A stretch of DNA of 64,000 nucleotides from an uncultured Gemmatimonadota bacterium (GTDB taxonomy: Bacteria > JAAXHH01): contig OX638340.1 of the NCBI GenBank assembly GCA_951812955.1, positions 1,216,001 to 1,280,000 of the forward strand, given 5' to 3'. The number at the start of each line of letters is the position of its first letter. The first letter of the stretch is position 1. The notes under the pieces are model-generated. The model saw only the letters and a program-made list of their open reading frames with translations. It was not told where the DNA came from and did not search any database. Position numbers and translations under genes: made by a program. Below are positions 7,773 through 63,145 of this stretch, piece after piece.

Positions 7773-8630
7773 TCATGACCGTGCGAACACGACCTGGTTT
7801 CGGGGATGGTCGGCGCGCTGGCCCGGACGCCTGTTGCCCAGGTTGGCATCGATGACCGGCCGGTTTTCCTCGCTGCACGCCGAATCGTCGATACAGAGGC
7901 CGTCCTCATAGAACGTGATCCCAATTGCTTCGCGGATGCGGCACGACGTGTTGGCCCGGGCGCCGTGCACGACCCAGTGGCTGTGCAGGGTGGCGTCGCC
8001 AGCGGGAATCTCCTCTTCCACCACGGGGTTCCGCCTAGTGCGGATGTGGCCTTCGAAGTAGGATTCCGATTTGCGGTGGATCCCCCTGGGGCCCAAGACT
8101 CTTGACCTGTGGGTACCGCTGGCGAATCGCGGCGGCCCCATGTCGATAGCGGTGTCCACGAGGGGTATCCACATGGTGAGCACGTTGTCCGAATGAAGGG
8201 GCCAATGCGGACCGTCCTGGTGCCATGGCGTGAGCCAGCTACCGGGTTCCTTGAACATCGCCTTGTCGTAGTAGATGCGCACCGCGTCCACGCCCATCAG
8301 GTCGGCCGCGATCTTCCCGAAACGGGGCGACTGGATGAACCGCGCCGCACGCTCGTCGGCTTCCCTCAGGTTGAAGGTCTGCATGAATACGCGGGAGAAA
8401 TCATCCTCCGGCCGGTCGCTCATCTTTTTCGCCCCGGCAAACCGATTGGCCGTGACCGACTTCAACACTTCGCGGTACACGTCGATCTCTTCCCTTGAAC
8501 AAACGCCACCCAGATGGACGTGGCCGTTCTCGCGGTATTGGCGTACGTGGTCTGCGGTCAGGGAGTATTCCGACGAAAGATCCGGTCTGAGGGTCGGTTC
8601 GCACGTCGTCATGGATAGAAATCCTTCCAC
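7773..8630 (-). CDS. Phytanoyl-CoA dioxygenase (PhyH) family Fe(II)/2-oxoglutarate oxygenase
   Basis: 285 aa. N-terminal LTADHVRQYRENGHVHL and WHQDGPHWP (the iron-binding HxD context) are typical of PhyH. Confidence 0.65.
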   Translation of the reverse strand: MEGFLSMTTCEPTLRPDLSSEYSLTADHVRQYRENGHVHLGGVCSREEIDVYREVLKSVTANRFAGAKKMSDRPEDDFSRVFMQTFNLREADERAARFIQSPRFGKIAADLMGVDAVRIYYDKAMFKEPGSWLTPWHQDGPHWPLHSDNVLTMWIPLVDTAIDMGPPRFASGTHRSRVLGPRGIHRKSESYFEGHIRTRRNPVVEEEIPAGDATLHSHWVVHGARANTSCRIREAIGITFYEDGLCIDDSACSEENRPVIDANLGNRRPGQRADHPRNQVVFARS

Positions 8631-8823
8631 CCGGCGGATAAAGTCGCCGGTTAGTCTGGGACTGGATCGCAGGTAACGGCAACTAACCTTTTCGCCCTGG
8701 GAAGGTCAAGGAGTTTGCCCCGCTGACGGGAGACCGGCGAACTGAACATTGCAGGGCTCTCCGGAAACGGTTTTACAGGCATCCGCACTTGAAAGTTGAC
8801 AGACCGAATCCGTCCACCAGCCC

Positions 8824-8852
8824 CCCACACTTGACAGGTCGCATCGGTTCGT
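8824..8852 (+). promoter_or_regulatory. Candidate sigma70-type promoter upstream of accA
   Basis: TTGACA (8824-8829), a 17-nt spacer, then TTTATT (8847-8852). A second TTGACA lies about 30 bp upstream. Confidence 0.3.
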
Positions 8853-8948
8853 CTTTATTTGAGGAAACGCGGCGAGACGATCTTGCAGCACACGAGTCCG
8901 CCGCGATTGCAGTTTATGAAACCCGGACGGCAAAGCCCGGAGCATACC

Positions 8949-9950
8949 ATGGAAGAAAACGGCCCGATACTCGAATTCGAAAAGCCGATTTACGAGCTCG
9001 AAAAACGCATCGAGGAAATGAGAAACTATGCGGTGACCGAAAACCTCGATGCCCTGGCCGATGAGATCCAGCGCCTGGAAGAGGAAGTGGTCCGTCAGCG
9101 GCAGAAGACCTATGCCAACCTAACCCGGTGGCAGCGCGTGCTCATCGCCCGCCATCCGAACCGCCCCCACACGCTCGATTATATAAACGGGATGATGACG
9201 GATTTCGTCGAGCTGCACGGTGACCGGTCTTTCGGGGATGACAAAGCCATGGTCACCGGACTGGCGAAAATGGACGGACGGCCCATCGCCGTCGTGGGCC
9301 ACCAGAAGGGAAAGAACACCAAGGAAAACGTGATGCGCAATTTCGGCATGGCGGGTCCCGAGGGATACCGCAAGGCCCTGCGCATCATGAGGCTGGCCGA
9401 GAAGTTCGACATGCCGGTCCTGTCCCTCGTCGACACCCCTGGAGCCTATCCCGGCGCGGGTGCCGAGGAACGGGGCCAGGCGGAAGCCATCGCACGGAAC
9501 ATTTATGAGATGGGACGCCTACGTGTACCGATCATCGTCATGGTCATCGGCGAAGGCGCCAGCGGCGGCGCCCTGGGCATCGGCGTGGGCGACCGGGTCA
9601 TCATGATGGAGAACGCCTGGTATTCGGTGATCAGCCCCGAACCCTGTTCCACCATCCTCTGGAAAGACCAGGAGAAGGCCGCGGCCCGCAAGGCGGACTG
9701 CGCGGAAGCCCTCCGCCTTTCTGCCACCGACCTGCTACAGTTCGGCGTCATCGACGAAATCGTCCCCGAGCCCTTCGGAGGCGCGCACCGCGACCACGAA
9801 ACATCCATTGCCAATGTCAGAAAATCCATCCTCAAGGCGTTGCACGAGGCGGGCGAACAGTCCGTCGAGGAGCGCCTAGAAGCCCGGCTGGAAAAGTACA
9901 GCAGCATGGGCGCATACGATGTAGTACCCACCGCGGACGACCAATCGTAA
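8949..9950 (+). CDS. accA: Acetyl-CoA carboxylase carboxyltransferase subunit alpha
   Basis: Begins [24 protein letters not shown]... It has the carboxyltransferase alpha signature ([49 protein letters not shown]). The 363-aa ORF's upstream extension is unlikely. Confidence 0.9.
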
Positions 9951-9973
9951 ATCGGAATCCGGGAGCGGGATTC

Positions 9974-11327: not shown

Positions 11328-12500
11328 CTAGGCTATCGTACGGGGTTTCAGTTCGCCTGGACGGGTGAATCGAGCGAGCGCGAAGAGGCTAGTGTCGACT
11401 GGCGGCGTTTCGTCGTACAGTTTGGCGGCCAGGATCTCGCCCAGTACCGGGCCGAACTTGAACCCGTGCCCCGAAAACCCCGCGGCTACGACTACGTGGC
11501 TGTAATCGGGATGGCGATCCAGGATGAAGTGGTAGTCCGCAGAATTGGTGTAGAGACAGTGTTTCACCGTGACGGGATTGCGGAAAAGGTGGGGACATCT
11601 TCGGCCGACGAATGCCTGCACCGCGGCGAGATTGACGCGATCCACGTCTTCGGGGTCATCGGCATCGACGATACGGCCGGTTCTATGGCAGCCGGCTTTC
11701 ACCCCAGGCACCTGTACCTGGGGCACGCAGTAAAAGGGATCGGCGGTGTGATAATCGATCACGTTGGGCATGGCACCCGCCTCATGCGAGACCGGCCCGG
11801 CCTGCGGAAAGTAGGCCAGCAGTTCGCGCGTGATCACCAACTTGGCTTTGATCCCCAGTGCGTCAAGCCACCGGCCCGTCCATCCACCCGCTGCCAGCAC
11901 CAGGCTGGCAGCCGACCAGGAGCGCCCGTCGGACGCTGTTACCTCGACACGGTCTTCGCGCGGATCAATCGCAGCGACTTCCGTTTCCGTCAGGGCGTCC
12001 ACGCCATCTTCCCGGACGCAGTCCCACATACTCCGAACCAATACGTCCGCGAAAAGTACCGCGCTGTCGGGCTGGTGGATCGCTTCGCTTGTCCGTGGCA
12101 GGTTCAATTGAGGGAAACGGCGGGAAAAGGCAACGCCGGCCAGCCGCTCGTAGGGTAGTCCGCATTCCCGCAACCGGGTTTCAAGGATACCCAGTACCTC
12201 CGCGTCTGCTGGCGCCAGGTTGCAGATCCCGGTCTGTCTGAACAGCGGCCTGCCCAGGCGTTTCGCGAGGTCTTCCCAGAACCGGAACGCCCGCGACGCC
12301 ATTTCGACGTACACGTTCTCTTCGTAATCGAAACGAAACATCCGGCTGTCGCCGTGCGAACTGCCGTGTTGGTGTGCGGGCGCGTATCTTTCTAGCAGAA
12401 GTACGCGTTTTCCGCGCCCGGCCAGGACATAGGCAGACGAGACGCCGACGACCCCTCCGCCGACCACGATGACATCGTACTGGTTCTCCCGCCGGCTCAC
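11328..12500 (-). CDS. FAD-dependent oxidoreductase, monomeric sarcosine oxidase / N-methyltryptophan oxidase (MSOX/MTOX) family
   Basis: The Rossmann motif DVIVVGGGVVG is present. HGSSHGDSRMF and the C-terminal GFSGHGFKFGPVLGEILA closely match MSOX-family signatures. Confidence 0.8.
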   Translation of the reverse strand: MSRRENQYDVIVVGGGVVGVSSAYVLAGRGKRVLLLERYAPAHQHGSSHGDSRMFRFDYEENVYVEMASRAFRFWEDLAKRLGRPLFRQTGICNLAPADAEVLGILETRLRECGLPYERLAGVAFSRRFPQLNLPRTSEAIHQPDSAVLFADVLVRSMWDCVREDGVDALTETEVAAIDPREDRVEVTASDGRSWSAASLVLAAGGWTGRWLDALGIKAKLVITRELLAYFPQAGPVSHEAGAMPNVIDYHTADPFYCVPQVQVPGVKAGCHRTGRIVDADDPEDVDRVNLAAVQAFVGRRCPHLFRNPVTVKHCLYTNSADYHFILDRHPDYSHVVVAAGFSGHGFKFGPVLGEILAAKLYDETPPVDTSLFALARFTRPGELKPRTIA

Positions 12501-13492
12501 GGCAGGCCCCGTGTCGCGCGGAGCAAGGTCTCCTGCACGAGCAGTTCGTGGGACGGGGGACGGTCCGGCGGCTGATCCCCGGATATGGTTTTCAGGAACG
12601 ACTCCAGCTCGAGGTCGTACAGCTCCTGGCGGCTTCGGCCCTCCACGGGCACCCGGGATTCTCCAGCTGAATATCCGTCCCGGTCGCCGGTCAGGACCAG
12701 CCGGATCTCCGTGCCCGGTTCGAAGGGTTCGATGAGTATGGCGCTTCCCTCTGTGCCGTACACCTCGAAACGGCGCGCGGCCGGCGAAGGTTCCATGGCG
12801 GCGATGTCCACGGTGGCCATGGCGTGATCGTATTCGAATACACCCAGACCGTTATCGGTGAAGGCGGTGACTTCCCCGGTCTCGTTTCTCAGGAACGCGG
12901 TTACCTTTGACGGACGGCCGAGGATCCAGACCACCTGGTCGAGCATGTGGCCGGCCAGGTCGTAGAATATGCCGCCTTGGTGTGTACCGATTACCTCTCT
13001 GGAAGTGGCTGGAACGTTTGTCGACATGTGCGCCCGTATGGAAAAAACGTTGCCCAGCATGCCGGACCTTGCCCAGTCCGCAATTTTGACGAACCCGTCG
13101 TGATACCGGAACATGTACCCCATCTGCACCTGCAGGTTCGCCTTTTCCGCCAAAGCGGCCACCCGCTGCCAGGCGGGCCAGTCGTCCCCGGCAGGCTTGT
13201 CATACCAGGCATGTTTGCCGGCGCGGATGATCTCTTCGGTCTGGGCCAGGCTTTCGTCGTTGCGGCCTTCCGATGCAACGGCGACGACAGCCGGGTCACC
13301 GAGCATATCCTCCGCGCATTCGAACCAGCGGACGTCGGCGTACGGACCGTCGACGTGTTCCAGGGCGGCCCTCCTCTCCGCATTGGGCTCGAACACCCCG
13401 ACGCACTCGACGTCTGGGTTGGTCAACATGGACTGAAGTTTGCCGGCGGCATGCCCGTGACCGGTGCCGTATTGCGCCATGTGAATCGACAT
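12497..13492 (-). CDS. Gfo/Idh/MocA family NAD(P)-dependent oxidoreductase
   Basis: Start trimmed to ATG 13492 (MSIHMAQYGTGHGHAAGK..., a Rossmann-like N-terminus). The rest shows Gfo/Idh/MocA fold similarity. There is a 4-nt overlap with the downstream gene. Confidence 0.65.
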   Translation of the reverse strand: MSIHMAQYGTGHGHAAGKLQSMLTNPDVECVGVFEPNAERRAALEHVDGPYADVRWFECAEDMLGDPAVVAVASEGRNDESLAQTEEIIRAGKHAWYDKPAGDDWPAWQRVAALAEKANLQVQMGYMFRYHDGFVKIADWARSGMLGNVFSIRAHMSTNVPATSREVIGTHQGGIFYDLAGHMLDQVVWILGRPSKVTAFLRNETGEVTAFTDNGLGVFEYDHAMATVDIAAMEPSPAARRFEVYGTEGSAILIEPFEPGTEIRLVLTGDRDGYSAGESRVPVEGRSRQELYDLELESFLKTISGDQPPDRPPSHELLVQETLLRATRGLP

Positions 13493-13680
13493 TTTACGGT
13501 TCCTCTGTGTGCAATGACTGAGACTGTTTCGGGTTACCGGGAAGTAAATGCCGGACGTGGTATCGTCAAGCGAATTCGGGTGGATATGACGCTTGACATC
13601 CGGTCCCGTTTCCGCTACGTTCGCACCAATCTTTCCATGATCCATTAGCTCAAAACCTATTACAGACCAGGAGTTGCAAG

Positions 13681-14529
13681 GTGTCCCTTTCCCAGGCGCA
13701 GATCGACCGATTCAGAGAGGTCGGTTTCCTTAACGTGGGCCGCGTTTACAGCGATAATGAGGCCGACGCATTGCGGGACCGCCTGATGACCGTAATCGCG
13801 GGCACGTCCCGCGGGAGGGCCGAGGCGGTTCGTAACCTGCGCGGCGAGGAGCTCGAGGCGGAAAGAGACGTGGTGATCCAGGTGGTCAATACCTGGCAGG
13901 CGGATGACGGGTTCCGGATCCATCTCTATCACCCCGGGATATGCCGGATGGCCTGCGAACTGATGGGGACCGACGTACTGCGGGTGTGGCACGACCAGAT
14001 CCAGTATAAACCGCCGCGGCGAGGCGGGGCGACGGACTGGCACCAGGACCATCCGTACTGGCCGATCATCCAGCCAGCCGATCTGGTTAGCGCCTGGGTG
14101 GCTCTGGACGATGCAACTGTCGAAAACGGCTGCATGCGTATGGTGCCGCGCAGCCACCAATGGGGACCCCATAAGGGCGGTACGATTGGGACGAACGAAG
14201 ACGGTTTCACGCCGGATCCTGATCTTTCCCTCTTACCGGATGACGAAGATGTCGAAATAGTGCCCTGTGAAGTCAAGAAAGGCGAGTGCATGTTCCACCA
14301 CTGCCTTACGTGGCACGGCAGTCCGCCCAATCCATCCGAATACGGCCGGCCGGCCATCGCGGTGCACTACATGCCCGGATGGACGCGTTACGAACCGACC
14401 AGGACGCATATCATGGAACGAAGGGTAGACGTGGAACCCGGAGAACTCCTGACCGGCCATTACTTCCCCACCGTGTGGGATCACGGCCCCGTCAAACCGC
14501 CGGAGCACTGGTCCGAGGAGCAGGCATGA
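13681..14529 (+). CDS. Phytanoyl-CoA dioxygenase (PhyH) family oxygenase
   Basis: 282 aa. IDRFREVGFLNVGRVYSD and WHQDHPYWP are PhyH signatures. GTG start. Confidence 0.65.
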   Translation: MSLSQAQIDRFREVGFLNVGRVYSDNEADALRDRLMTVIAGTSRGRAEAVRNLRGEELEAERDVVIQVVNTWQADDGFRIHLYHPGICRMACELMGTDVLRVWHDQIQYKPPRRGGATDWHQDHPYWPIIQPADLVSAWVALDDATVENGCMRMVPRSHQWGPHKGGTIGTNEDGFTPDPDLSLLPDDEDVEIVPCEVKKGECMFHHCLTWHGSPPNPSEYGRPAIAVHYMPGWTRYEPTRTHIMERRVDVEPGELLTGHYFPTVWDHGPVKPPEHWSEEQA

Positions 14530-15773
14530 GCGTTGAGGCCAACGTCAACACCGCCTCCCGGCCCGGCGAACTGCGTATCACCGACATGCGCACGGTCACG
14601 ATCGGCGCGTCAACGATTATCAGGCTCGATACCAACCAGGACATTCACGGCCTGGGCGAGGTGCGGGACGGCGCGAGCAAGACCTATGCCCTGGGCCTCA
14701 AGTCGCGCATCCTGGGCGAGAACCCCTGCGAAGTCGACAGGATATTCCGGAAGATCCGCCAGTTCGGGCACCACGCCAGGCAGGCCGGCGGTGTCTGCGC
14801 TATCGAGATGGCCCTGATGGATCTGGCGGGCAAGGTCTACGGCGTGCCCGCCTATCAACTTGCAGGCGGTAAATTCAGGGATTCGGTGCGCATATACTGC
14901 GATACGACCACGTCCCCGGACGCAGAAGAGATGGGGCGTCGCCTCAAGGAACGCGTGGAACGGGGGTTCACCTTTCTGAAGATGGACGTGGGTATCGGCC
15001 TGCTGAAGGCCATACCCGGAACCCTGTCGGCCCCTGCAGGGATGCTGGACACGCTGCACATCATGCATCCATTCACGGGGATTCGGCTGACGGACAAAGG
15101 CATCGGCGTATTGTCGGATTACGTGGCGGGTGTCCGCGACATAGTCGGTTACGAAATCCCGCTCGCCGTCGACCACTTCGGGCACATCGGCGTGGAGGAT
15201 TGCATCCGCCTGGGCAAGGCGCTGGACCGGTACAACCTGGCCTGGTACGAGGATATGGTCCCGTGGCAGTTCACGGAGCAGTACATTCGCTTGCGGGACG
15301 CCTGCGACACGCCGATCTGCACGGGGGAGGACATCTACCTCAAAGATGGGTTCATGGACCTCTTCGAAAACCGGGCCATCTCCGTGTGTCATCCCGACCT
15401 GGCCACGTCGGGCGGCATCCTGGAAACCAAGAAGATCGGCGATTCGGCCCAGGAACACGGCATCTCCATGGCGCTGCACATGTCCGCCATGCCGGTCGCC
15501 CAGATGGCCAGCGTACACTGTGCCGCGGCCACCGAGAACTTCATCGCCCTGGAACACCACCACGTGGACGTGCCGTGGTGGGACGACCTGGTAACCGGCC
15601 TGCCGGATCCAGCGGTACAGGACGGTTTCATGGCGGTGCCCGAAGCGCCCGGTCTGGGAATCGAATTGAATGAAGAGGCGATTCGGGAGCACATCAGCGA
15701 CAAGGATCCGGGATACTTCGAACCCACAGACGAGTGGAATGACCTGCGTTCGCACGATCGCCTATGGAGTTAG
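14526..15773 (+). CDS. Enolase-superfamily enzyme (mandelate racemase/muconate lactonizing enzyme family; sugar-acid dehydratase-like)
   Basis: Its ATG overlaps the stop of the upstream PhyH gene (ATGA). It has the capping domain, the GFTFLKMDVG KxK motif, and DHFGH...WYED...TGED metal-ligand motifs. Confidence 0.75.
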   Translation: MSVEANVNTASRPGELRITDMRTVTIGASTIIRLDTNQDIHGLGEVRDGASKTYALGLKSRILGENPCEVDRIFRKIRQFGHHARQAGGVCAIEMALMDLAGKVYGVPAYQLAGGKFRDSVRIYCDTTTSPDAEEMGRRLKERVERGFTFLKMDVGIGLLKAIPGTLSAPAGMLDTLHIMHPFTGIRLTDKGIGVLSDYVAGVRDIVGYEIPLAVDHFGHIGVEDCIRLGKALDRYNLAWYEDMVPWQFTEQYIRLRDACDTPICTGEDIYLKDGFMDLFENRAISVCHPDLATSGGILETKKIGDSAQEHGISMALHMSAMPVAQMASVHCAAATENFIALEHHHVDVPWWDDLVTGLPDPAVQDGFMAVPEAPGLGIELNEEAIREHISDKDPGYFEPTDEWNDLRSHDRLWS

Positions 15774-15845: not shown

Positions 15846-16868
15846 ATGACTATTCCCGTTGCCCAGGGTCCGCCGTTACCGTTTGAGCCCAGCCCCTACA
15901 TCGCGCTTACTGAAACGCAACAGAGCCGGTTCGACGAAGACGGCTTTATCCTGATTGAGGATGCCCTCTCGCCGAGCCACGTCGAACGGCTGCTCAAGGT
16001 CGTCGACACGCTCTACGACAATTTCCACAGGACCCACGGTACCCCGCCCGACGCGCCTTACCAGATTCGCAACGCCCTGATTCACCACGAGGAGCTTTTC
16101 GCGTTGATCGAATACCGGAAGATCCTGTCGCTGGTCGTGGACGTCATGGGGGTAAACATACAGATCCGCACTTCCCACGTGGACGTCCGTCCTCCCATGA
16201 AAGATCACATGGGTGGAGAACTGGGGGCCAAGGGCAGCTTTTTCCCATGGCATTCGGACGCACCCAATTACGGCTATCCCATTACCAACGGCCGGATTCC
16301 CTTTTTAGAAGTGAAAGTCGGGTACTACCTCACCGATCTCACCGAGCACAACAGCGGCGCCATATGCGTGGTGCGGGGCAGTCACAAGCTTTCGCCGGAA
16401 CTGATCCACGATCCGGATTACCAGATCGACCCGATGGACATCGTGGAAGTGCGTGTCAGGCCGGGTACCGCCATGGTCTGGCGCACGGCGCTCTGGCACT
16501 GCCTGGCCCCCAATCTCTCCGGGCGAACCCGCAAGTGCCTCTACTACGGTTACAACCACCGCTGGGCACGACCCGGGGACTACGACCGCCAGGACTCCGA
16601 CCTGTTGGCCCGTTGCACACCCGTTCAGCGCCAGCTGCTGGGTTCCAACACCACGGAGGACGGAGTGGTTTACCAGGACGGCGATCCGGCCCATCCGGCT
16701 TCCAGGTACTGGCGGCCCGAAACCGCGGACGTACCCCTGGAAGCATGGGCTGATAGTCAATATCGGAAAAAACACCGCAGGGAACGGAAGCTATGGGAGA
16801 AACGGAATAGGCTGCCCCCCGGCGCCGTGGGCGCGCCAATAGAGCAGGAGGAAAGCCTCCTGGATTAG
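15846..16868 (+). CDS. PhyH family Fe(II)/2OG oxygenase
   Basis: 340 aa. PWHSDAPNYGYP carries the HxD motif, and the overall architecture is PhyH-like. Confidence 0.6.
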   Translation: MTIPVAQGPPLPFEPSPYIALTETQQSRFDEDGFILIEDALSPSHVERLLKVVDTLYDNFHRTHGTPPDAPYQIRNALIHHEELFALIEYRKILSLVVDVMGVNIQIRTSHVDVRPPMKDHMGGELGAKGSFFPWHSDAPNYGYPITNGRIPFLEVKVGYYLTDLTEHNSGAICVVRGSHKLSPELIHDPDYQIDPMDIVEVRVRPGTAMVWRTALWHCLAPNLSGRTRKCLYYGYNHRWARPGDYDRQDSDLLARCTPVQRQLLGSNTTEDGVVYQDGDPAHPASRYWRPETADVPLEAWADSQYRKKHRRERKLWEKRNRLPPGAVGAPIEQEESLLD

Positions 16869-16947: not shown

Positions 16948-17679
16948 ATGACCGAAGCCGAAATCTTCGAATTCGACCTCAATGGCTATATCATGTACCG
17001 GAACGTTCTAACCCGGGACCAGGTCGACCACATGAACGGGGTGCTCGACGAACACCTTACAGAAGAATCCTTCAATTTCCCATTTCTTCACCTGGACCCG
17101 ATGTTCATGGAAGTCATGGCCCTGCCCCGGACGCTGAACATACTCGGGACGATGATCGGGGACTGGATGCGCCTGGACCATGCCTACGGGCTCCAGATGG
17201 ATACGCTCTCCGAGGAACGGGGCGATACAAGACCAAACCTCCACGGCGGACCGCTGGAGGACAACGGCGAGCACCATTACCAGTGGTTCAATGGAAAGAT
17301 GTACAACGGCCTGACCGTCGTCATGTATGCTCTCGAAGACGTGAACCCCGGTGACGGCGGCTTCATCTGCGTACCGGGAAGCCACAAGGCCAACATGGAC
17401 TTCAAACCCGCGGTGAATTCGCATATCGTCGTCAATCCTGCCTTCAGGTCCGGCGATATGCTCATCTTCACGGAAGCGCTGGTCCATGGGACGAACACGT
17501 GGACCTCGTCGAACAAGCGGCGATCCCTGCTATACAAGTACTCCCCGGGACATTCCACGTGGGCGATCCCGGAAAATTGGGAAAAGCTGCGGGCCCTGGC
17601 GGCCAACGATCTGCAGCGCGACCTGCTCAGGGCGCCCAGCATCGAGGGCCGGACGCCCGTTGAGATACCGAAAGCGTGA
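16948..17679 (+). CDS. PhyH-like Fe(II)/2OG oxygenase, tandem paralog A
   Basis: 243 aa. It is about 65-70% identical to the next gene: MTEAEIFEFDLNGYI..., GDGGFICVPGSHKAN. Confidence 0.6.
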   Translation: MTEAEIFEFDLNGYIMYRNVLTRDQVDHMNGVLDEHLTEESFNFPFLHLDPMFMEVMALPRTLNILGTMIGDWMRLDHAYGLQMDTLSEERGDTRPNLHGGPLEDNGEHHYQWFNGKMYNGLTVVMYALEDVNPGDGGFICVPGSHKANMDFKPAVNSHIVVNPAFRSGDMLIFTEALVHGTNTWTSSNKRRSLLYKYSPGHSTWAIPENWEKLRALAANDLQRDLLRAPSIEGRTPVEIPKA

Positions 17680-17774: not shown

Positions 17775-18506
17775 ATGACCGAAGCCGAAATCTTCGAATT
17801 CGACCTCAACGGATACATCATCTACAAGGACATGCTGTCCCGGGACCAGGTGGATCACATGAACGGAATCCTGGACGGGCACCTCGCCGACGATGCCCAC
17901 GGCTTCCAGTTCCTTACACTCGATCCGGTATTCATGGAACTCATGGCCCATCCACGCACGCTGCGGATCATCCGCACGATGATCGGTGAATGGATGCGTC
18001 TGGACCATGCGTACGGTATGCAGATGGACAGACAGTCCGTCGAACGGGGCCATGTGAAACCGAATCTTCACGGCGGCCTGCGCCACGACCACGGAGAACA
18101 CCAGTACCAGTGGCACGATGGAAGGATGTACAATGGACTCATCGTGGTCATGTACGCACTCAAGGACGTCCACCCTGGCGACGGCGGCTTGATCTGCGTC
18201 CCGGGAAGTCACAAGGCCAACATGAATTTCCGGCCACCGGTGGATTCCCACCTAGTGGTGAATCCCTCCTTCATGGCGGGCGACATGCTCATCTTCACCG
18301 AAGCGCTGGTCCACGGCACCACCACGTGGACTTCCGACCAGCGGCGGCGCTCCTTGCTCTATAAGTATTCGCCCGGGTACTCCGCCTGGGCCTCGGCCGA
18401 CGGGCTGGACGACGCCCGTGCCCTGGCAACTGACGATGTCCAGCGCGACCTGCTGAGGCCGCCCAGCGTCGGAAGACGGACGCCCGTGGAGATCCCGGAT
18501 GAGTGA
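17775..18506 (+). CDS. PhyH-like Fe(II)/2OG oxygenase, tandem paralog B
   Basis: 243 aa. Same length and N-terminus (MTEAEIFEFDLNGYI) as the gene at 16948. Confidence 0.6.
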   Translation: MTEAEIFEFDLNGYIIYKDMLSRDQVDHMNGILDGHLADDAHGFQFLTLDPVFMELMAHPRTLRIIRTMIGEWMRLDHAYGMQMDRQSVERGHVKPNLHGGLRHDHGEHQYQWHDGRMYNGLIVVMYALKDVHPGDGGLICVPGSHKANMNFRPPVDSHLVVNPSFMAGDMLIFTEALVHGTTTWTSDQRRRSLLYKYSPGYSAWASADGLDDARALATDDVQRDLLRPPSVGRRTPVEIPDE

Positions 18507-18654: not shown

Positions 18655-19470
18655 ATGAACGTGCGCGACGAATTCCGTTACAACCGGTTGACCTGGGAGG
18701 ATATGAACGAGGCGATCGCCATGCAGAAGGTGGTGGTCCTTCCCACGGGTTCAACCGAGCAGCATGGCAAGCACCTTCCGCTGGACACGGACGCGTTCCT
18801 CGTCGAATCGGTCTGTCACGAACTGGGGCGGCGGATCCCCGACCGCGTACTCGTTCTGCCGACGGTCTCCTACGGACTCAACCTGCACCACATAGACTTT
18901 CCCGGTACGATCCACATCGAACCCGAAGTGTTCATCGCCTTCTGCCTGAACATCACCAAAAGCGTCGCCTACCACGGTTTCGAGAAGATCCTGCTCGTTA
19001 ACGGACATGGTTCGAATGCCCCCATGATCGATCTGGTCGCCCGGAAGACGGTGCTGGCCACGGAGTCGCTTTGTTTCGCGGCCAATTACTTCACTTTCCT
19101 GGTGGACGCCTTCAACGAGGTGAAGGAATCAGAGGTGATGGCACACGCAGACGAACTGGAGACCTCATTGTACCTCCACCTCGCCGCCGATCGCGTTAAG
19201 ATGGACAAGGCCGCGCCGGATAACGATCGGGTGGGGAAGTACTGCTCATCGGACAGCACCGGTACCGTGCGCTTCAACGATTTCTGGGGAAGATGGACGG
19301 GCCTCGGGGTCCACGGCGACCCCACGCCGGCGACGGCGGAAAAAGGCGAGATCATCTTCAACGCGTCCGTGGAGGGCCTCGTCGAATTGATCGACGACAT
19401 TCACAAATGGCCGATCGAAAAGCGGCGCGATCAGCACACGGGGCCGGTTCAGAAGGGGATAAGGTGGTAA
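18655..19470 (+). CDS. Creatininase (creatinine amidohydrolase) family protein
   Basis: LPTGSTEQHGKHLPLDTD and LLVNGHGSN are family signatures. Confidence 0.8.
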   Translation: MNVRDEFRYNRLTWEDMNEAIAMQKVVVLPTGSTEQHGKHLPLDTDAFLVESVCHELGRRIPDRVLVLPTVSYGLNLHHIDFPGTIHIEPEVFIAFCLNITKSVAYHGFEKILLVNGHGSNAPMIDLVARKTVLATESLCFAANYFTFLVDAFNEVKESEVMAHADELETSLYLHLAADRVKMDKAAPDNDRVGKYCSSDSTGTVRFNDFWGRWTGLGVHGDPTPATAEKGEIIFNASVEGLVELIDDIHKWPIEKRRDQHTGPVQKGIRW

Positions 19471-38764: not shown

Positions 38765-38869
38765 AACCGCGAGGTAGGTGAGACCTTCGAATCAGGTAAG
38801 GCCGCGAGGTACTTGAGACCGCGAGGCAGGGTAGGCCGCGAGGTACGTGAGCAAAGGAGTGTGGATGCG

Positions 38870-43289: not shown

Positions 43290-43302
43290 CCACTGCAATA
43301 GC

Positions 43303-57489: not shown

Positions 57490-58254
57490 ATGTCACGAAG
57501 GCGCGTATTCATTGGAGACCTGACACGTAAGGAGTTCCGCGAAGGGATCGAGGACGGTACAATCAAGGCCGCCATCGTGCCCACGGCGGCTACGGAACAG
57601 CACCTCGAACACCTTGAAATGATCCACGACACGGCCAGTGTCGCTTACATGGCTGAACACGCGGCCCTTGAGTTGTATCCCCAGGTCGTCGTCGCTTCTC
57701 CCATCGCCATTGGCGTATCGGAACACTGGATGGAACACAGAGGAACGCTGACGGTCCGTCCCGAGATCTTCACCGAATACGTCTACGATGTGTGCGATGC
57801 CCTGAAGCGGGGCGGGATAACCAACATCCTTATTCTGAATGGACACGGCGGCAACGTAGTCCCGATGATGAACCGGATAGAGGACTTTCGGCGACGACTC
57901 GGCGTCAACGTGCGCTTCAATTCCTACTGGGACACCTACCCCACGGATTTCGTGTATCGGTACATGGAACGCGAAGCACTCCCCGGACACGCCGACGAAT
58001 ACGAGACCTCCATGGCCATGGCCCTCTTCCCGCACCGGGTCCACCCGGACGACATGGAAATGGAAAGCACCGCCCGTTTTGGAACGAAGGAGAAGGGCGA
58101 AGCTCTCGCGCCCGTGGCGGTGAACGGCGTGGCGGACTTGCTGATCCGAATGATCGCCGGGGAGGAGATCGACCTGGAACCCCGCACGTTCCGTGCAGCC
58201 GGCGCCCAGTCGATGATCCGGGATCGGCTCATCGAGGCGAGATCTGAGCAATGA
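57490..58254 (+). CDS. Creatininase family protein (second paralog)
   Basis: VPTAATEQHLEHLEMIHD and LILNGHGGN match the family. Confidence 0.7.
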   Translation: MSRRRVFIGDLTRKEFREGIEDGTIKAAIVPTAATEQHLEHLEMIHDTASVAYMAEHAALELYPQVVVASPIAIGVSEHWMEHRGTLTVRPEIFTEYVYDVCDALKRGGITNILILNGHGGNVVPMMNRIEDFRRRLGVNVRFNSYWDTYPTDFVYRYMEREALPGHADEYETSMAMALFPHRVHPDDMEMESTARFGTKEKGEALAPVAVNGVADLLIRMIAGEEIDLEPRTFRAAGAQSMIRDRLIEARSEQ

Positions 58255-58390: not shown

Positions 58391-58424
58391 TACCAGTAGG
58401 TGTTACAAGAACTGGAGGTAGGGA

Positions 58425-59105
58425 TTGACAGACCGCAATGCCCATCCGTACTATACGAATCCGCGCCGGGGAGGTTCCTTTCCGGTACCTGTTTCAGCAG
58501 TGTTTGTCGTTCTGGTTGTGTTCTTCGTCGGGATTTCGGTCGCGTTACTCGCGTGTTCGGAATCGTCGCCAACGGAACCGGAAATGGGAGAGCACGGAAC
58601 GAACGGCGGGGAATCAGGTGAGGGCGGTGAAGGAGGTTCAGGTGAACATGGTGAAGGTGGCGAGGGTGGCGAGGGTTCTGGTGGCGAGGGTGGCGAAGAA
58701 TCCGGCAACGCGCTGACAAAGGATCAGACCTTTGATTCGGTGCGGAAGGGTGCTCGCCTCGTCCTGCGTTACGATTCCACCGCCGACGCCTTCGTCGGGA
58801 CTGTGTCGAATACCACCGATTCCACCCTGGTCCAGGTCCGTGTCGAAGTGCACCTGTCCAACGGCACGGAACTGGGCCCCACTACGCCGGTCGACCTCGC
58901 CCCGGGTGGGTCGGTGCCCGTCACACTGTCCGCCATGGGAGAATCGTTCGACGGCTGGACCCCTCACGCCGAAGTGGGTCCCTCCAGCGGAAGCGGCGGC
59001 GAGCATGGAAGTGGCGGAGAGTCAGGTGAGGGCGCCAGCGAGTCAGGTGAAGGCAGCGGGGGCGAACATGGTGGAAGTGGTGAAGGCGGAGGTGATGGGG
59101 GTTGA
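58425..59105 (+). CDS. Hypothetical lipoprotein with Gly/Glu/His-rich (GEGGEHG) repeat tails flanking a conserved ~90-aa core
   Basis: A TTG start is preceded by GGAGGT. The signal peptide has an LLAC|S lipobox. Acidic repeats EHGTNGGESGEGGEGGSGEHGEGGEGG occur at both ends. The core is RKGARLVLRYD...FVGTVSNTT...VRVEVHLSNGTELGPTTPVDL...GWTPHAEV. Confidence 0.5.
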   Translation: MTDRNAHPYYTNPRRGGSFPVPVSAVFVVLVVFFVGISVALLACSESSPTEPEMGEHGTNGGESGEGGEGGSGEHGEGGEGGEGSGGEGGEESGNALTKDQTFDSVRKGARLVLRYDSTADAFVGTVSNTTDSTLVQVRVEVHLSNGTELGPTTPVDLAPGGSVPVTLSAMGESFDGWTPHAEVGPSSGSGGEHGSGGESGEGASESGEGSGGEHGGSGEGGGDGG

Positions 59106-59209
59106 ATGTACAGCGCCATACCCAGCATCACCGCGACATTGATGCGGCATTGGACGAGGGAACAGTAAAGGAGGACGAATTGTCAACATCCAATATACGT
59201 TCAAACGGT

Positions 59210-59983
59210 ATGAATCCCCAGCCGGCGAATCACGCCCCGGAATCGGCTTTAACCGCGTTTGCTTTTTTGAGTGTACTCTTCGCCCTGGTTTCGGTCACGG
59301 CCTTGGCGTGTTCAAATGACGCGGGTGAAAACCAGTCCACGTCCGATACGGCACGGATGGTAGCTGTCGATGCGCAGCAGAACGGCGAAGCATCGGAGTC
59401 GCGTGGCGGAGAAAGGGCTTCCAGCGGGGAATCAGGTGAGCACGGCGGGGATGGCGAAGCGATGGAATCCGGCGGGGAATCAGGTGAGTACGGTGGGGAT
59501 GGCGGAGAAAACGAAGGCGAGGGGGGCGGTAGTGACGAAGGCGAAGAATCCGGCGCGTTGCTGGCCCTGGATGAGACCTATGATACGGTACGCAGAGGCG
59601 CCCGGCTTATCCTGAACTACGACGCCGGTACCAATTCCTTCGTCGGAACGGTGTCGAACACCACCGGTGAAACCCTTCGCCGCGTCCGGGTCGAAGTGCA
59701 CCTGTCCAACGGCACGGAACTGGGCCCCACGACTCCTGTCGATCTCACTTCGGGTGAGATGACCGAAGTTACCCTTTCTGCAACGGCAGAACCTTTTACC
59801 GGCTGGACGCCCCATGCCGAGGTAGACACGGGGGACGGTAGCGGAGGCGAGCATGGTGAAGGCGGTGAAGGCGGTGAAGGCGGTGAAGGCGGCGGTGAGC
59901 ATGGTGGACGCGGTGAAAGCAGCGAAGGTGGTGGAGAGGACGGCGAGCACGGTGAAGGTGGCGAGGGTGACGGGAGCGCGTAA
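59210..59983 (+). CDS. Hypothetical lipoprotein paralog with Gly/Glu/His-rich repeat tails
   Basis: Starts at ATG 59210, or at TTG 59180 preceded by AAGGAGG. It has an LAC|S lipobox and the same conserved core (RRGARLILNYD...FVGTVSNTT...VRVEVHLSNGTELGPTTPVDL...GWTPHAEV). The C-terminus is made of GEHGEGGEGGEGG repeats. Confidence 0.5.
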   Translation: MNPQPANHAPESALTAFAFLSVLFALVSVTALACSNDAGENQSTSDTARMVAVDAQQNGEASESRGGERASSGESGEHGGDGEAMESGGESGEYGGDGGENEGEGGGSDEGEESGALLALDETYDTVRRGARLILNYDAGTNSFVGTVSNTTGETLRRVRVEVHLSNGTELGPTTPVDLTSGEMTEVTLSATAEPFTGWTPHAEVDTGDGSGGEHGEGGEGGEGGEGGGEHGGRGESSEGGGEDGEHGEGGEGDGSA

Positions 59984-60191
59984 GGCGGTGAAAGAGGCGA
60001 AGGCGGCGGGGGGCGACGAACACGGAACAGGCGGTGAAGACCGCGGCGAACATGACGGAGGCTGAGACTGGTTCGTATGCCATGTACCAGAATCCGTGAA
60101 AAACACCGCTTGATCGTACTCCTCAATGGACCTATTGTAACAACCAGCACATCAACATTACCGCCTGATAAAGAGTGATCGGAAAAGCAAA

Positions 60192-61292
60192 GTGCAACCA
60201 ACGCCAGCCAACCCAAGCCTGAAACAAATCCCGCTCCTGACCGCGAGCCAGATCGCCCGGTTCAAGCGCGACGGCTTCCTCGTTCTTCCCGCCGCGCTAG
60301 ACCCCGAACTCTGCCGCCAGGCCAGGGACGCGATGTGGGCCGCGGTGGCAACGCACCATCCCGTCATGAAGCGCGACGATCCCTCCACCTGGGCGCCGTT
60401 CAACGATGAAGTAAGCGGCCAACTTAAAGCGAAGCAGCCCGAGATCGGCGGGGACCCCTATTTCTTCACCGAAGGCCACCGCTTCTATGTCCGAAATGGC
60501 ACCGAGCCACTCATGCTCGATCTGGCCCCCAGACCCTTGTGGCAGGTCGCCGAGCAATTACTTGGTCAGGGCACGGTGGTATGGCCCGCCGGAGCGGATG
60601 CGTCCGGCATGACGACGGGACCGTGCTTCATGTCCGACGAAGCGGTGAGCGGTCTGGCCAGCCATGGAGTCAAAGAGACCGGGCAATGGCCTGAGAAGGG
60701 ATCCTTCACCACGGAAGAAGCGCTGCGCCTGCCCAGGACCGGTCCGGTGTGGTCGACCGGACAAGGGACACGCGGTTTGTACTGCACCCTGCCCAACAGC
60801 CCGTCTCCCGGTCCGGATTACCGCCGCGCCCATTCGGACGGGGTCTGCTACGGACGCGTCCGGTTTCAGGTAACCGCTTATGTCGACGACCTGCCGGCCA
60901 ATTCCGGTGGCTTCACGGTGTGGCCAGGCAGCCACAGACGAATCTGGCGCGAGCAGTGGCAGACCTTTCTCGAAGGTGAAAAGTACACGGACGACAACCT
61001 GGCGGAACGCAAGGCCGACGGTTATAACGATCCCGTCATCCAGCGCATCAAGGCCGACACCCGACCCGTTGATTGCCACGGTCCCGCCGGCACGGTGGTC
61101 TTGTGGCACACCAAGATCCTGCATATTGCCGGACAGAATACCTCCTCAGATATCATTCGCCAGGCAACTATCTACGGTTTCATGAAAACGCCGGAATCCC
61201 TTCCCGATCCGCTTGTAACGGACCACACCAACATGGATATCTGGCGTGACTGGTCCGATGAAGTGCGGGCTGTTGATGAGCGCCAGGAATAG
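60192..61292 (+). CDS. PhyH family Fe(II)/2OG oxygenase
   Basis: 366 aa. N-terminal LTASQIARFKRDGFLVLPAAL with PhyH-like architecture. GTG start. Confidence 0.55.
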   Translation: MQPTPANPSLKQIPLLTASQIARFKRDGFLVLPAALDPELCRQARDAMWAAVATHHPVMKRDDPSTWAPFNDEVSGQLKAKQPEIGGDPYFFTEGHRFYVRNGTEPLMLDLAPRPLWQVAEQLLGQGTVVWPAGADASGMTTGPCFMSDEAVSGLASHGVKETGQWPEKGSFTTEEALRLPRTGPVWSTGQGTRGLYCTLPNSPSPGPDYRRAHSDGVCYGRVRFQVTAYVDDLPANSGGFTVWPGSHRRIWREQWQTFLEGEKYTDDNLAERKADGYNDPVIQRIKADTRPVDCHGPAGTVVLWHTKILHIAGQNTSSDIIRQATIYGFMKTPESLPDPLVTDHTNMDIWRDWSDEVRAVDERQE

Positions 61293-61398
61293 CGCCTTGC
61301 TCCCGACCCTTGCCGGTGGAATCTACTTTTTCTGTCTCGCCCGTCAATACTCCAAAAACCCACATTTGCCAGGCATTTTCCTTGCGCTCCGATTCGAT

Positions 61399-61418
61399 GT
61401 TATTACAATAGTAGTAAC
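61399..61418 (+). promoter_or_regulatory. Imperfect inverted repeat (GTTATTAC-N5-TAGTAAC) upstream of the antitoxin gene; candidate autoregulatory operator
   Basis: The 8-bp arms carry one mismatch. It sits about 15 bp upstream of the antitoxin ATG in an AT-richer promoter-like stretch. Confidence 0.3.
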
Positions 61419-61433
61419 GACAGGGGGTATTTC

Positions 61434-61661
61434 ATGGTCGAACTCAAAGTCCGAAAATTCGGCAACTCGCTCGGCGTCGTCCTGCCCAAGGAAGTCGTCA
61501 ATCGGCTGCGCACGAAGGATGGGGAGCCACTGTTCCTCACCGAAGGACCGGACGGCAGCTACAAGTTGACGCCCTACGATCCCAACTTTGCAGAAAAGAT
61601 GGAGATGGCAGAAAAGATCATCGACCGCTATCGCAACACACTCCATGTCCTGGCCAAGTGA
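61434..61661 (+). CDS. AbrB/MazE/SpoVT-family antitoxin (type II TA)
   Basis: 75 aa. VKVRKFGNSLGVVLPKEV is the swapped-hairpin AbrB-type DNA-binding motif. Its stop overlaps the toxin's GTG (GTGA). Confidence 0.7.
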   Translation: MVELKVRKFGNSLGVVLPKEVVNRLRTKDGEPLFLTEGPDGSYKLTPYDPNFAEKMEMAEKIIDRYRNTLHVLAK

Positions 61662-62053
61662 CGGAGCCGGTCTGGATAGAAACACGCGATGCACTGATGT
61701 TGCACGAGCGCCTTATTGTGCTACACGGTGGTGCGGCGGGGGTGCGCGACAAAGGCTTGCTGCAATCAGCTCTGGCCCGAGCGCGTCAAATCTACGCGTA
61801 TTCGGATACGCCAGATCTCATCGAAATGGCGACGGCCTATACAGTGAGCATCGTGCGCAACCATCCATTTGTAGATGGCAACAAGCGTACCGGCTTTGTA
61901 GTCGGAATCCTGTTTCTTGAGCTGAACGGATTTCACTTCACCGCCACTCAAGCGTGCGCGGCTCAGTCCGTTATAGAACTAGCAGGCGGGTCACTTGATG
62001 AAGCGGGCTACACGGCGTTCCTGCGCGCGAATGTCGAAACGCTGAAAGGATGA
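61658..62053 (+). CDS. Doc/Fic-family toxin (death-on-curing type)
   Basis: 131 aa. HPFVDGNKRTG is the Fic/Doc active-site motif HxFx(D/E)GNKR. Confidence 0.8.
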   Translation: MTEPVWIETRDALMLHERLIVLHGGAAGVRDKGLLQSALARARQIYAYSDTPDLIEMATAYTVSIVRNHPFVDGNKRTGFVVGILFLELNGFHFTATQACAAQSVIELAGGSLDEAGYTAFLRANVETLKG

Positions 62054-62138
62054 ACGGAACGCGGAGCGATGAAACGAAAGTGGAGCGATGAAACGAACAT
62101 AGAGCGGTGAGCGGTGAACGGAACACGGAGCGATGACA
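62050..62138. repeat. Imperfect short direct repeats (GAACGGAAC / GGAGCGATGAAACGAA family) downstream of the toxin gene
   Basis: GGAGCGATGAAACGAA occurs at 62063-62078 and 62082-62097, with a related copy at 62127-62138. GAACGGAAC occurs at 62052 and 62118. Confidence 0.4.
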
Positions 62139-62212
62139 TCACATCTGCAACGCCCAACCGCCGCCACAACAAGCCTTAAGTCAGACCCTAAATCTGGAGG
62201 AATGGAGGGAAC

Positions 62213-63145
62213 ATGTCGACCATTACCAAACCGGGCAACGAAACCGGTGCCGATTCAGCTGTCGAGCCCGCCGCCGCATTTGACGCCGACTCCACATCTG
62301 CCGCCGCCCCCGTTCCCATGACCGAGGAGCAGAAGTTCTTCTTCGACCTGAAGGGCTGGATCCTCGTGCCCTCCGTATTGTCGGAGACCGAGATCGAGGA
62401 AATGAAGGCCGAAGCGTACGCTGCGGTAAAACCGGACTATCAGGGTAAAAACAGCGACCTGCAACAGGGCTATCAGGGCATGCTGGCCAACCTGCTCGAT
62501 CATCCGGCCGTGGTGGGCATTCTGAACGAGATCCTCACCGAGCCGCCCTTTGTGGGGGACGACCATTACGGATTCCGCTGCGAGAACTCCTTCCTCATGG
62601 TGCGGGAACCCGGCTGGGAGTCGACTGTTAAGGGCACCGGGCTGCCCCATGTCGTGCGCCCTCCCCAGCAGGCCAACGCCATGCGCTACCAGGTGCAGGG
62701 CGGCAAGATCTTCGCGGGACTGACGCGCGTCGTATGGGAGTTGGAGGAAGTCCGGGCGGGGTACGGCGGCACCTCCTTTCTGAGCGGTTCGCACAAGGCT
62801 CATTTCAATTACGGCGGACCGGACCGGTACCGGCCCAACATCAGCGAATCGCCCTGGGAGGAAAGTCTATACGCCGCCATGGAGGATTACAGTTGTCCGC
62901 CGGGGTCGATGCTGGTCTTCACCGAAAGCCTCATCCACGCTGCGAACGATTGGACCAATCCGGACAACCGTCGATGCGCTGTATTCAACTGCTACAACTC
63001 GATCTGGGCGCAGTGGCACCGGCTCAATCTCGACCACGAGGTTATCGATAAGATGCCACCCAAGCGGCAGTCCCTCTTCCGCGGTGCGTGGCAACTGGGC
63101 GGCGACGGGAATCGTACGTACTCGGCGGACAATCGGTCGGTGTGA
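62213..63145 (+). CDS. PhyH-like Fe(II)/2OG oxygenase (related to the 16948/17775 pair)
   Basis: 310 aa. FFFDLKGWILVP resembles FEFDLNGYI, and GSHKAH is present. Confidence 0.55.
   Translation: MSTITKPGNETGADSAVEPAAAFDADSTSAAAPVPMTEEQKFFFDLKGWILVPSVLSETEIEEMKAEAYAAVKPDYQGKNSDLQQGYQGMLANLLDHPAVVGILNEILTEPPFVGDDHYGFRCENSFLMVREPGWESTVKGTGLPHVVRPPQQANAMRYQVQGGKIFAGLTRVVWELEEVRAGYGGTSFLSGSHKAHFNYGGPDRYRPNISESPWEESLYAAMEDYSCPPGSMLVFTESLIHAANDWTNPDNRRCAVFNCYNSIWAQWHRLNLDHEVIDKMPPKRQSLFRGAWQLGGDGNRTYSADNRSV

Follow-up and report, generated by a model that had tools for sequence, protein, structure and literature searches.

A Cluster of Divergent PhyH-Family Oxygenase Genes in the Genome of an Uncultured Gemmatimonadota Bacterium

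Introduction

Sponge and coral symbionts, as well as deep-ocean bacteria, process a large and poorly characterized pool of organic matter, to which expanded oxygenase families are thought to open access. The subject of the present work is a stretch of 64 kb from an uncultured Gemmatimonadota bacterium (contig OX638340.1, positions 1,216,001 to 1,280,000; hereafter the window), in which eight of about 52 genes encode proteins of the phytanoyl-CoA dioxygenase (PhyH) family. These genes are named PhyH_A, B, C, D1, D2, E, F and G. From a biochemical perspective, each of the encoded enzymes would bind Fe(II) and 2-oxoglutarate, and decarboxylation of this co-substrate would yield an Fe(IV)=O species able to oxidize a small-molecule substrate at one C-H bond.

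The PhyH Genes of the Window

The window was analyzed through a list of 586 six-frame open reading frames (ORFs) and through Pfam scans of every plausible gene. The initial annotation, made from the letters of the DNA, had placed eight PhyH-family ORFs in it, and this count holds: all eight match PF05721 (PhyH) rather than models of unrelated folds, with scores of 34.6-141.7 bits, above the gathering threshold of 22. Furthermore, a hidden Markov model (HMM) built from the eight ORFs and run with filters off against the 586 ORFs recovered exactly those eight (E <= 9e-72), and no ninth PhyH was found among them, the next-best match having E = 0.95.

PhyH_A (7773..8630; 92.3 bits) is encoded on the minus strand and the other seven on the plus strand. 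PhyH_B (13681..14529; 141.7 bits), PhyH_C (15846..16868; 64.7 bits), PhyH_D1 (16948..17679; 43.9 bits) and PhyH_D2 (17775..18506; 47.6 bits) follow one another closely, and PhyH_E (32696..34147) matches the family with its N-terminal domain (36.3 bits) and continues into C-terminal HEAT repeats. After 26 kb without any PhyH (34-60 kb), the right end of the window carries PhyH_F (60192..61292), which has a long N-terminal/insert region and matches over residues 197-324 (55.0 bits), and PhyH_G (62213..63145; 34.6 bits), whose true start is probably M36 at 62318. The neighbors that the initial annotation had described as interleaved with these genes are all present, namely two enolase-superfamily enzymes, two creatininase-family proteins, a Gfo/Idh/MocA oxidoreductase, an SDR enzyme, two sulfatases and many pyridoxal phosphate (PLP) enzymes.

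Searches for exact copies of PhyH_G (in versions of 310 and 275 aa) and of SelB gave no match, and the region beyond the right edge was viewed in a 95%-identical relative (locus L069), reached through a homolog (P0121, 95% identical). In this relative PhyH_G is followed by a 427-aa MR_MLE gene and then by a ninth PhyH of 258 aa (12358-13134; Pfam 62.1 bits), only 18-22% identical to the other copies, whose position corresponds to a point just past 64000 of the window, after the second enolase. After this ninth PhyH come the genes for Fic, for a hydrolase of the FAH family, for a TonB-type outer-membrane protein and for UxuA.

In ordinary genomes PhyH genes account for <0.05% of the genes, and in Poribacteria for >1.9% (PMC3909097). 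The binomial probability of finding at least eight among 52 genes is 3e-18 at the former frequency, 9e-6 at 2%, as in the PhyH-rich Poribacteria, and 1.5e-4 at 3%. Gauged against these literature reference frequencies only, the clustering is far beyond chance and the window appears to be a PhyH hot spot. It could be argued that such clustering merely reflects a high genome-wide density of PhyH genes of the poribacterial kind, with no functional island behind it. The ninth copy, which a close relative has immediately past the window edge, would fit this explanation, and so would the presence, in 16 of 35 distant loci containing PhyH_D, of another PhyH-like ORF within 10 kb. Nevertheless, the explanation is improbable, given that the probabilities calculated at 2-3% of genes are still very low, that the 34-60 kb interval is free of PhyH genes and that several copies belong to same-strand, predicted operons whose gene order is conserved across phyla, as described below.

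Relationships Among the Paralogs

PhyH_D1 and PhyH_D2 are, as first noted, of the same length (243 aa each). Their identity had been put at 65-70%, and the measured value is 71% for the proteins (171 of 241 positions) and 74.5% for the nucleotide sequences. What did not stand is the description of the pair as a recent tandem duplicate. At 45 of the 87 fourfold-degenerate sites in conserved codons the two genes differ, with a Jukes-Cantor distance of 0.88, meaning that the silent sites are near saturation; moreover, in a neighbor-joining tree D1 and D2 fall into two separate clades, each with orthologs from at least 13 species-level genomes. For both reasons the pair must be regarded as old. 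D2 groups with the single-copy genes of six members of the sponge/coral-associated lineage (L019, L021, L022, L023, L026 and L041), and D1 is the younger-looking member of this old tandem pair.

All PhyH pairs other than D1/D2 are at most 28% identical or undetectable by BLASTP. The best of them are A-B (27%, E=3e-20) and D-G (26-28%, E ~1e-18 to 1e-20), most of the remaining ones being undetectable. Because of these low identities, the "expansion" of the initial annotation cannot be read as a local burst of duplication; the sequence comparisons indicate instead that the window is an assembly of seven deep PhyH subfamilies standing side by side, one of them represented by an old tandem pair.

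Active Sites and Structural Relatives

The distal histidine and an arginine located 11-12 residues after it, expected to bind the C5 carboxylate of 2-oxoglutarate, are invariant in all eight sequences. Five of these display the canonical HxD...H...R arrangement: PhyH_A (H137-Q-D139, H222, R233), PhyH_B (H121-Q-D123, H212, R223), PhyH_C (H136-S-D138, H218, R229), PhyH_E (H104-K-D106, H181, R192) and PhyH_F (H214-S-D216, H311, R323). In the others the aspartate position is occupied by Gly or Val and a glutamate is found four residues before the distal histidine (TEALVH, TESLIH), as in PhyH_D1 (H99-G-G101, E176-x3-H180, R191), in PhyH_D2, whose site is of the same type, and in PhyH_G (H146-V-V148, E238-x3-H242, R253). 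This relocated glutamate (E-x3-H) is invariant within the D and G families; the T-E-x-L-x-H positions of the motif FTESLxH are unchanged in 16 of 16 aligned sequences, and LPHVVRPPQQ is identical in 12 of 12 aligned G-family sequences.

HygX, the orthoester synthase of hygromycin B, is described as having a metal site with the arrangement H-x-G...E-x3-H (PMC13374393). HygX is the top PDB match both for the D-family profile (E=2.1e-18) and for PhyH_G (8.7e-8). An AF2 model of D2, obtained from a 138-sequence alignment headed by D2 (pLDDT 89.7), leads to the same protein, since the top 16 Foldseek matches are all HygX entries (E=1.9e-15, TM 0.71) and all of the 50 matches listed are Fe(II)/2-oxoglutarate oxygenases with the double-stranded beta-helix that the model predicts. 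A model of D1 based on an 18-sequence alignment reached a pLDDT of 51.6 and was discarded. From motif, profile and model taken together, D1, D2 and G appear to carry a putative metal site of the HygX type, H-x-G/V...E-x3-H. The HxG motif could also be taken for the signature of a halogenase; this possibility was rejected on account of the invariant relocated glutamate, which HygX also has. Since Lys137 of HygX aligns with a Val in the D family, the reaction of HygX is not claimed for the D proteins.

Among solved structures, SnoK is the nearest to PhyH_A (E=3e-14) and to PhyH_B (E=3.3e-23), the latter also matching MysH (3.9e-17) and human phytanoyl-CoA dioxygenase (PAHX, 2a1x; 1.4e-11). The PDB matches of PhyH_C are weak (leucine hydroxylase, 4.9e-5), and for PhyH_F no credible PDB match was obtained. 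The PhyH_F family is small: out of 1.84 billion, E<=1e-3 is reached by 653 representatives and <=1e-30 by 55. As for PhyH_E, the two-domain PhyH-HEAT layout of ~480 aa is retained in every one of the best 120 clusters, at identities down to 48%.

The initial annotation had left the substrates of the paralogs unassigned, and none of the eight reaches any NCBIfam equivalog cut-off. The best scores with the ectoine hydroxylase EctD model (TIGR02408) are 31.5 for B and 23.4 for C against a cut-off of 336.5; those with the chlorinating-enzyme model (TIGR01762) are 42 for B and 18.9 for C against 226.3, both proteins having HxD; those with the methylphosphonate hydroxylase model (NF052437, MPhHdxlPhnYGIM8) are 53.6 for B and 23.2 for A against 500. 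No HD-domain (PhnZ-type) protein was seen among the window genes covered by the Pfam scans, a negative that concerns the use of 2-aminoethylphosphonate, for which no model was scored.

The family name, together with the match of PhyH_B to the human enzyme, could suggest true phytanoyl-CoA-type hydroxylases engaged in the alpha-oxidation of branched, phytol-derived fatty acids. This is extremely unlikely. PAHX was never the top PDB match for any PhyH copy searched, none of the proteins reaches an equivalog, and the window Pfam scans reveal, among the neighbors, neither an acyl-CoA ligase nor a 2-hydroxyacyl-CoA lyase, nor any beta-oxidation genes. The suggestion that the genes serve in the degradation of recalcitrant or branched compounds does not find confirmation: no alpha-oxidation or acyl-CoA genes accompany them, and the conserved partners are instead acid-sugar-dehydratase-like, sugar-dehydrogenase-like and aldolase-like.

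The solved relatives, that is HygX, SnoK/SnoN, EvdO2, KanJ and MysH, could instead point to the tailoring of a natural product, for example in an aminoglycoside- or glycoside-type pathway, and the window does encode an aminotransferase of the DegT type and a GT2 glycosyltransferase. Such a role is nonetheless quite improbable, because conservation at 50-75% extends, in the D, G and E families, over several phyla and very many genomes, a breadth typical of primary or catabolic metabolism rather than of a specialized cluster. The Val in place of HygX Lys137 also speaks against it, and the window Pfam scans show no polyketide synthase (PKS), nonribosomal peptide synthetase (NRPS), terpene or sugar-nucleotide biosynthesis genes. 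The GT2 gene, for its part, belongs to a LeuRS-adjacent backbone that is kept in a free-living relative.

Lineage, Gene Order and Conservation

Seven ENA metagenome contigs encode a D1 protein without a single difference and keep the order of the genes. Among species-representative genomes 63 loci were recovered (loci and contigs of other genomes bear L numbers in the text), of which the closest (81-92% identity) belong to metagenome-assembled genomes (MAGs) with the titles Candidatus Latescibacterota (Plut_88884 and others), Gemmatimonadetes (SB0665_bin_8, IRC1_bin_16 and APA_bin_41) or simply "bacterium"; complete chromosomes of 3.7-3.9 Mb are included among the close relatives. From the MAG names and from papers by the Aquatic Symbiosis Genomics project, which report Latescibacteria MAGs from sponges, we infer that the source lineage is associated with sponges and corals. 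A free-living relative is represented by a Tara Oceans contig (L072; 64% identity) that shares the backbone of PhyH_E with the genes for LeuRS and a permease.

Five of the PhyH copies are part of a block in which the order is NUDIX, PhyH_A, AccA, amidohydrolase, DAO, GFO, PhyH_B, Eno1, PhyH_C, PhyH_D1, PhyH_D2, Creat1, SDR, SelA, amidase and IOR. The conservation of the neighborhood, which the initial annotation had proposed as a check, is clear here, the five-copy block, put at 17 genes, being kept in ~22 species-level genomes. PhyH_A is 77-91% identical within the lineage, where relatives annotate a product of 279 aa, and PhyH_C is present in every related locus.

The core of the block is opened by PhyH_B, which overlaps by 4 nt the gene for the first enolase-superfamily enzyme (Eno1; 14526..15773, plus strand, 415 aa), and it is closed by that for the first creatininase-family hydrolase (Creat1; 18655..19470, plus strand). 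All the core genes lie on one strand and, apart from the overlap, are separated by gaps of 72-148 nt. The order B, Eno1, C, D, Creat1 recurs in L025 (a Tara MAG), L027 (labelled Zixibacteria), L029, L030 and L031. On the basis of strand, spacing and recurrence, B-Eno1-C-D1-D2-Creat1 is a predicted six-gene operon conserved across phyla. The recurring core is usually accompanied by one or both of two divergently oriented genes, encoding a Gfo/Idh/MocA oxidoreductase (GFO; 12497..13645, minus strand) and a FAD-dependent amine oxidase (DAO; 11328..12500, minus strand), the latter remaining alongside the operon in L027, L030 and L031.

Within this conserved frame the number of PhyH genes varies. 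D1 has been lost in L019, L021, L022, L023, L026 and L041, and D2 in L017 and L030; PhyH_B is absent or covered to 0.34-0.40 of its length in five relatives (L017, L019, L041, L023 and L026). Such losses and truncations indicate that the PhyH copy number of the block is still changing, through continuing gain and loss. L026, one of the relatives without an intact PhyH_B, is otherwise 91-99% identical to the window.

AccA and SelA reach housekeeping equivalogs in NCBIfam and are probably bystanders in the block. AccA had been considered as an enzyme of the pathway and SelA (20411-21667) as a DgaE-like sugar-acid lyase; both candidates were ruled out, these being genuine housekeeping equivalogs. 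The match of SelA, whose gene lies inside the PhyH block, is to TIGR00474 (482 bits).

A second set of similar design occupies the right end of the window, with the gene for a second creatininase-family hydrolase (Creat2; 57490..58254, plus strand) upstream of an ORF of unknown family (59102..59983, plus strand) and of PhyH_F, then PhyH_G, the gene for the second enolase-superfamily enzyme (Eno2; 63200..64000, plus strand, N-terminal part, since the window ends inside it; MR_MLE_N 68.9 bits) and the ninth PhyH, this last seen in L069. Eno1 and Eno2 are 26% identical to each other, as are Creat1 and Creat2. The order Creat2, unknown-family gene, PhyH_F is retained in L069, where a 261-aa gene matches the intermediate ORF with a phmmer score of 162; this ORF has no Pfam or NCBIfam match. 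Compared with L069, the window has ~1.1 kb of extra DNA between Creat2 and PhyH_F (58425-59105), with an ORF weakly matching the FxLYD domain. Inserted between PhyH_F and PhyH_G is a toxin-antitoxin pair (61434-62053) made up of a Fic/Doc toxin and an antitoxin of the MazE type, and at the same position L069 carries other small genes, including one for a VapB antitoxin.

Partner Genes and Possible Roles

The enolase-superfamily partners resemble galactonate, mannonate or rhamnonate dehydratases, in all cases below the cut-offs. Eno1, which matches the Pfam domains MR_MLE_C/N, scores as galactonate-dehydratase-like (173.8 bits against a cut-off of 311) and has as its nearest PDB entries uncharacterized MR/MLE proteins and ManD/GalD. 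GFO, a Pfam-assigned Gfo/Idh/MocA oxidoreductase conserved with the operon, is weakly inositol- or sugar-dehydrogenase-like, its iolG-like score of 70.8 bits being below the NCBIfam cut-off. Comparable partners are met in distant genomes. In L064 (labelled Gemmatimonadaceae) PhyH_D lies between an L-rhamnonate-dehydratase-like enolase gene (292 bits) and a DHDPS-family gene that is N-acetylneuraminate-lyase-like (186 bits). A housekeeping DapA function for this DHDPS gene was considered and rejected, the dapA model giving 123 against 206 and the protein being nearer to neuraminate lyase. After it, downstream of PhyH_D, L064 also carries a gene for an AlkB-type 2OG-Fe(II) oxygenase (11692-12315; PF13532, 125 bits). 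More generally, 18 of 35 distant loci have a DHDPS-family ORF directly downstream of their PhyH_D. Homologs of PhyH_G in distant genomes are 70-75% identical, and one of them (P0189, on contig L070, NCBI label Caldilineaceae) stands between a GFO gene and a galactonate-dehydratase-like enolase gene. A fusion of a threonate kinase with PdxA, two sulfatases and an SBP are also found in the window, and FAH-family and UxuA genes beside the PhyH_G module in L069.

Because the recurrent partners are acid-sugar-dehydratase-like and neuraminate-lyase-like, the explanation that we favor, with a confidence slightly short of even, is that the PhyH enzymes would supply accessory oxidation steps in parallel catabolic operons for sugar-acid-like substrates. 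The substrate may be a carboxylate, most likely a sugar acid or a sugar-derived compound, to which the oxygenase would add a hydroxyl, or from which it would strip an alkyl group bound to O or N, by way of a hemiacetal or hemiaminal that is unstable. The enolase-superfamily dehydratase, the creatininase-like hydrolase, the Gfo/Idh/MocA or SDR dehydrogenases and the aldolase-like enzymes would then move the product towards central metabolism. The catabolic role, the substrate class and the type of reaction are what we infer from the relatives and neighbors of these genes.

Several observations weigh against this explanation. No PhyH, enolase or creatininase-like protein attains an NCBIfam equivalog cut-off, and for this reason the proposed substrate class rests on weak family resemblance and on neighboring genes. 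PhyH_D lacks both an enolase and a DHDPS neighbor in roughly half of the distant genomes. Housekeeping AccA, SelA and LeuRS are interspersed, so that the block is not all one pathway, and the closest characterized relatives (HygX, SnoK, EvdO2, KanJ and MysH) are biosynthetic and not catabolic. In addition, some neighbors are of a type associated with nitrogen compounds, namely the sarcosine/N-methyl-amino-acid oxidase-type flavoenzyme, the Xaa-Pro-dipeptidase-like amidohydrolase and the creatininase-family hydrolases, and peptide-type SBP_bac_5 transporters, an amino-acid permease and many aminotransferases are conserved neighbors too.

These last genes suggest a different picture, doubtful yet deserving of weight, in which nitrogenous small molecules derived from the host are broken down, for example compounds resembling creatinine or sarcosine, derivatives of hydroxyproline and proline, betaines or conjugates of sugars with amino acids. 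Hydroxylation or oxidative N-demethylation would then be the task of the PhyH enzymes, and the enolases would be racemases, epimerases or hydroxy-amino-acid dehydratases. DAO, of the monomeric sarcosine oxidase / N-methyl-Trp oxidase type, does exceed its cut-off (NF008425, 306.9 bits against 257), the amidohydrolase scores 271.6 bits, and the enolases have a weak resemblance to cis-3-hydroxy-L-proline dehydratase. Moreover, SBP_bac_5 and Opp-type transporter genes adjoin PhyH_G in L070, and creatinine has been named as a nutrient supplied by the host to sponge symbionts (PMC8546597). However, the best enolase matches are acid-sugar dehydratases and not racemases, the window showed no gene for a creatinase or a betaine demethylase, and the partners of PhyH_D across phyla are rhamnonate-dehydratase-like and neuraminate-lyase-like. 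The creatininase-family proteins, too, fall short of the NCBIfam creatininase cut-off of 235, with 116.8 bits for Creat1 and 60.2 for Creat2, and they resemble MftE and IolN equally. Creat1 (Pfam 229 bits), with 131.9 bits against the MftE-like cut-off of 172 and 4e-19 to creatinine amidohydrolases of the PDB, is by score no bona fide creatininase. Natural-product tailoring, phytanoyl-CoA oxidation and mere gene density are each less likely than the breakdown of nitrogen compounds and than the catabolism of sugar-acid-like substrates.

Within sugar-acid catabolism, a more specific proposal concerns the D and G proteins and is advanced as a tentative possibility, taken in all its parts together. 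According to this proposal, the D/G clade would be a large primary-metabolism branch of PhyH with the HygX-type site H-x-G/V...E-x3-H, spread over Latescibacterota, Gemmatimonadota, Zixibacteria, Planctomycetota and Chloroflexota. Its partners would be enolase-superfamily acid-sugar dehydratases and neuraminate-lyase-like aldolases, and it may perform an undescribed oxidative step in sugar-acid catabolism, such as the removal of an ether or alkyl group or the hydroxylation of a C-H bond of a deoxy sugar. The PhyH-HEAT fusion of PhyH_E would represent a second undescribed family. The locus offers defined targets, namely the six-gene operon, the HygX-type clade with thousands of members and the PhyH-HEAT fusion. 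The assignment of one substrate would carry over to the annotation of very many metagenomic genes and would tell whether HygX-like chemistry occurs outside antibiotic biosynthesis.

Other Features of the Window

Further components of the selenocysteine machinery are encoded at the left end of the window, where SelB (85-2088) is followed by a tRNA-Sec (2162-2259; ARAGORN, Rfam 70.6 bits). From ~2300 to ~7800 the G+C content drops to 0.52-0.54 from ~0.61. Here tRNA-Sec is directly followed by an ORF without matches, a COX3-like ORF and a gene pair that encodes a DUF4276 protein and an AAA_21 ATPase, this ATPase matching the PADLOC models HEC-01A and AriA (167 bits). The segment may be a small integrated island with a defence-like gene pair.

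The gene for the 901-aa fusion mentioned above, which joins a four-carbon acid-sugar kinase (D-threonate-kinase-like) to a PdxA-type dehydrogenase, has an overlap of 179 nt with a PALP gene that is threonine-synthase-like (41997-45816). The Tara relative L072 has PALP and PdxA on one product, and the arrangement could be a frameshift or a variable fusion. The two sulfatase genes (37241-40714) are located between AICARFT-like and DHDPS-like genes; the backbone is the same in L072 without the sulfatases, which may be a lineage-specific insertion. Finally, at 51473-52948, a dual-specificity-phosphatase-like domain is fused to an ADP-ribosylglycohydrolase.

Comparison With Known Systems

Several known enzymes offer a comparison with the PhyH proteins of the window. 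PhyH_D1, D2 and, more loosely, G share the metal motif and, by prediction, the fold of HygX (PDB 4XC9, 4XCA, 4XCB, 4ZPI). Unlike HygX, the D proteins, at ~22% identity to it, have Val at the position of Lys137, the residue proposed to activate the iron center; moreover, the window contains no orthosomycin or aminoglycoside cluster, and D and G are widespread beside genes of catabolic type. The canonical HxD...H proteins PhyH_A and PhyH_B have as their nearest solved relatives SnoK/SnoN of the nogalamycin pathway, MysH, KanJ and EvdO2, which act on sugar or cyclitol-derived moieties, but the resemblance is limited to E-values of 1e-14 to 1e-23 at low identity, and A and B have no biosynthetic context. 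With EctD, the SyrB2-type halogenases and methylphosphonate hydroxylase the Pfam family and the general chemistry are in common, whereas the scores are far below the cut-offs and, unlike the halogenases, the HxG copies have a compensating Glu.

At the level of gene content, SAR202 bacteria show an expansion of enolase-superfamily (COG4948) paralogs, associated with parallel non-phosphorylative pathways that break down sugars and sugar acids (PMC10444878). By analogy, the present locus would resemble SAR202 in having deeply divergent paralogs in parallel catabolic pathways, with acid-sugar-dehydratase-like enolases as partners. The expanded family is here PhyH, and the word "dioxygenase" is absent from the text of that paper.

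The closest precedent is that of Poribacteria, in which 305 PhyH sequences, grouped at 60% identity, give 193 clusters (Kamke et al., 2014; PMC3909097), and it also serves as a precedent for the link drawn by the initial annotation between marine bacteria and expanded oxidative families. In both cases an uncultured, marine, sponge-related lineage possesses many highly divergent PF05721 genes without an assigned substrate. Unlike Poribacteria, the lineage studied here is labelled Latescibacterota/Gemmatimonadetes, and its genes form a local, operon-organized cluster whose density refers to the window only. No report of PhyH enrichment was found in the literature on Latescibacterota/PAUC34f, and nothing was found on PhyH enzymes in polysaccharide catabolism. 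A PhyH expansion being known from sponge-associated Poribacteria, this locus is a further case, confirmed but descriptive and in itself unsurprising. What goes beyond the initial annotation, with functions that are predicted, is an operon that appears conserved across phyla, a widespread clade with a putative HygX-type site in a catabolic-looking setting, and a conserved PhyH-HEAT fusion.

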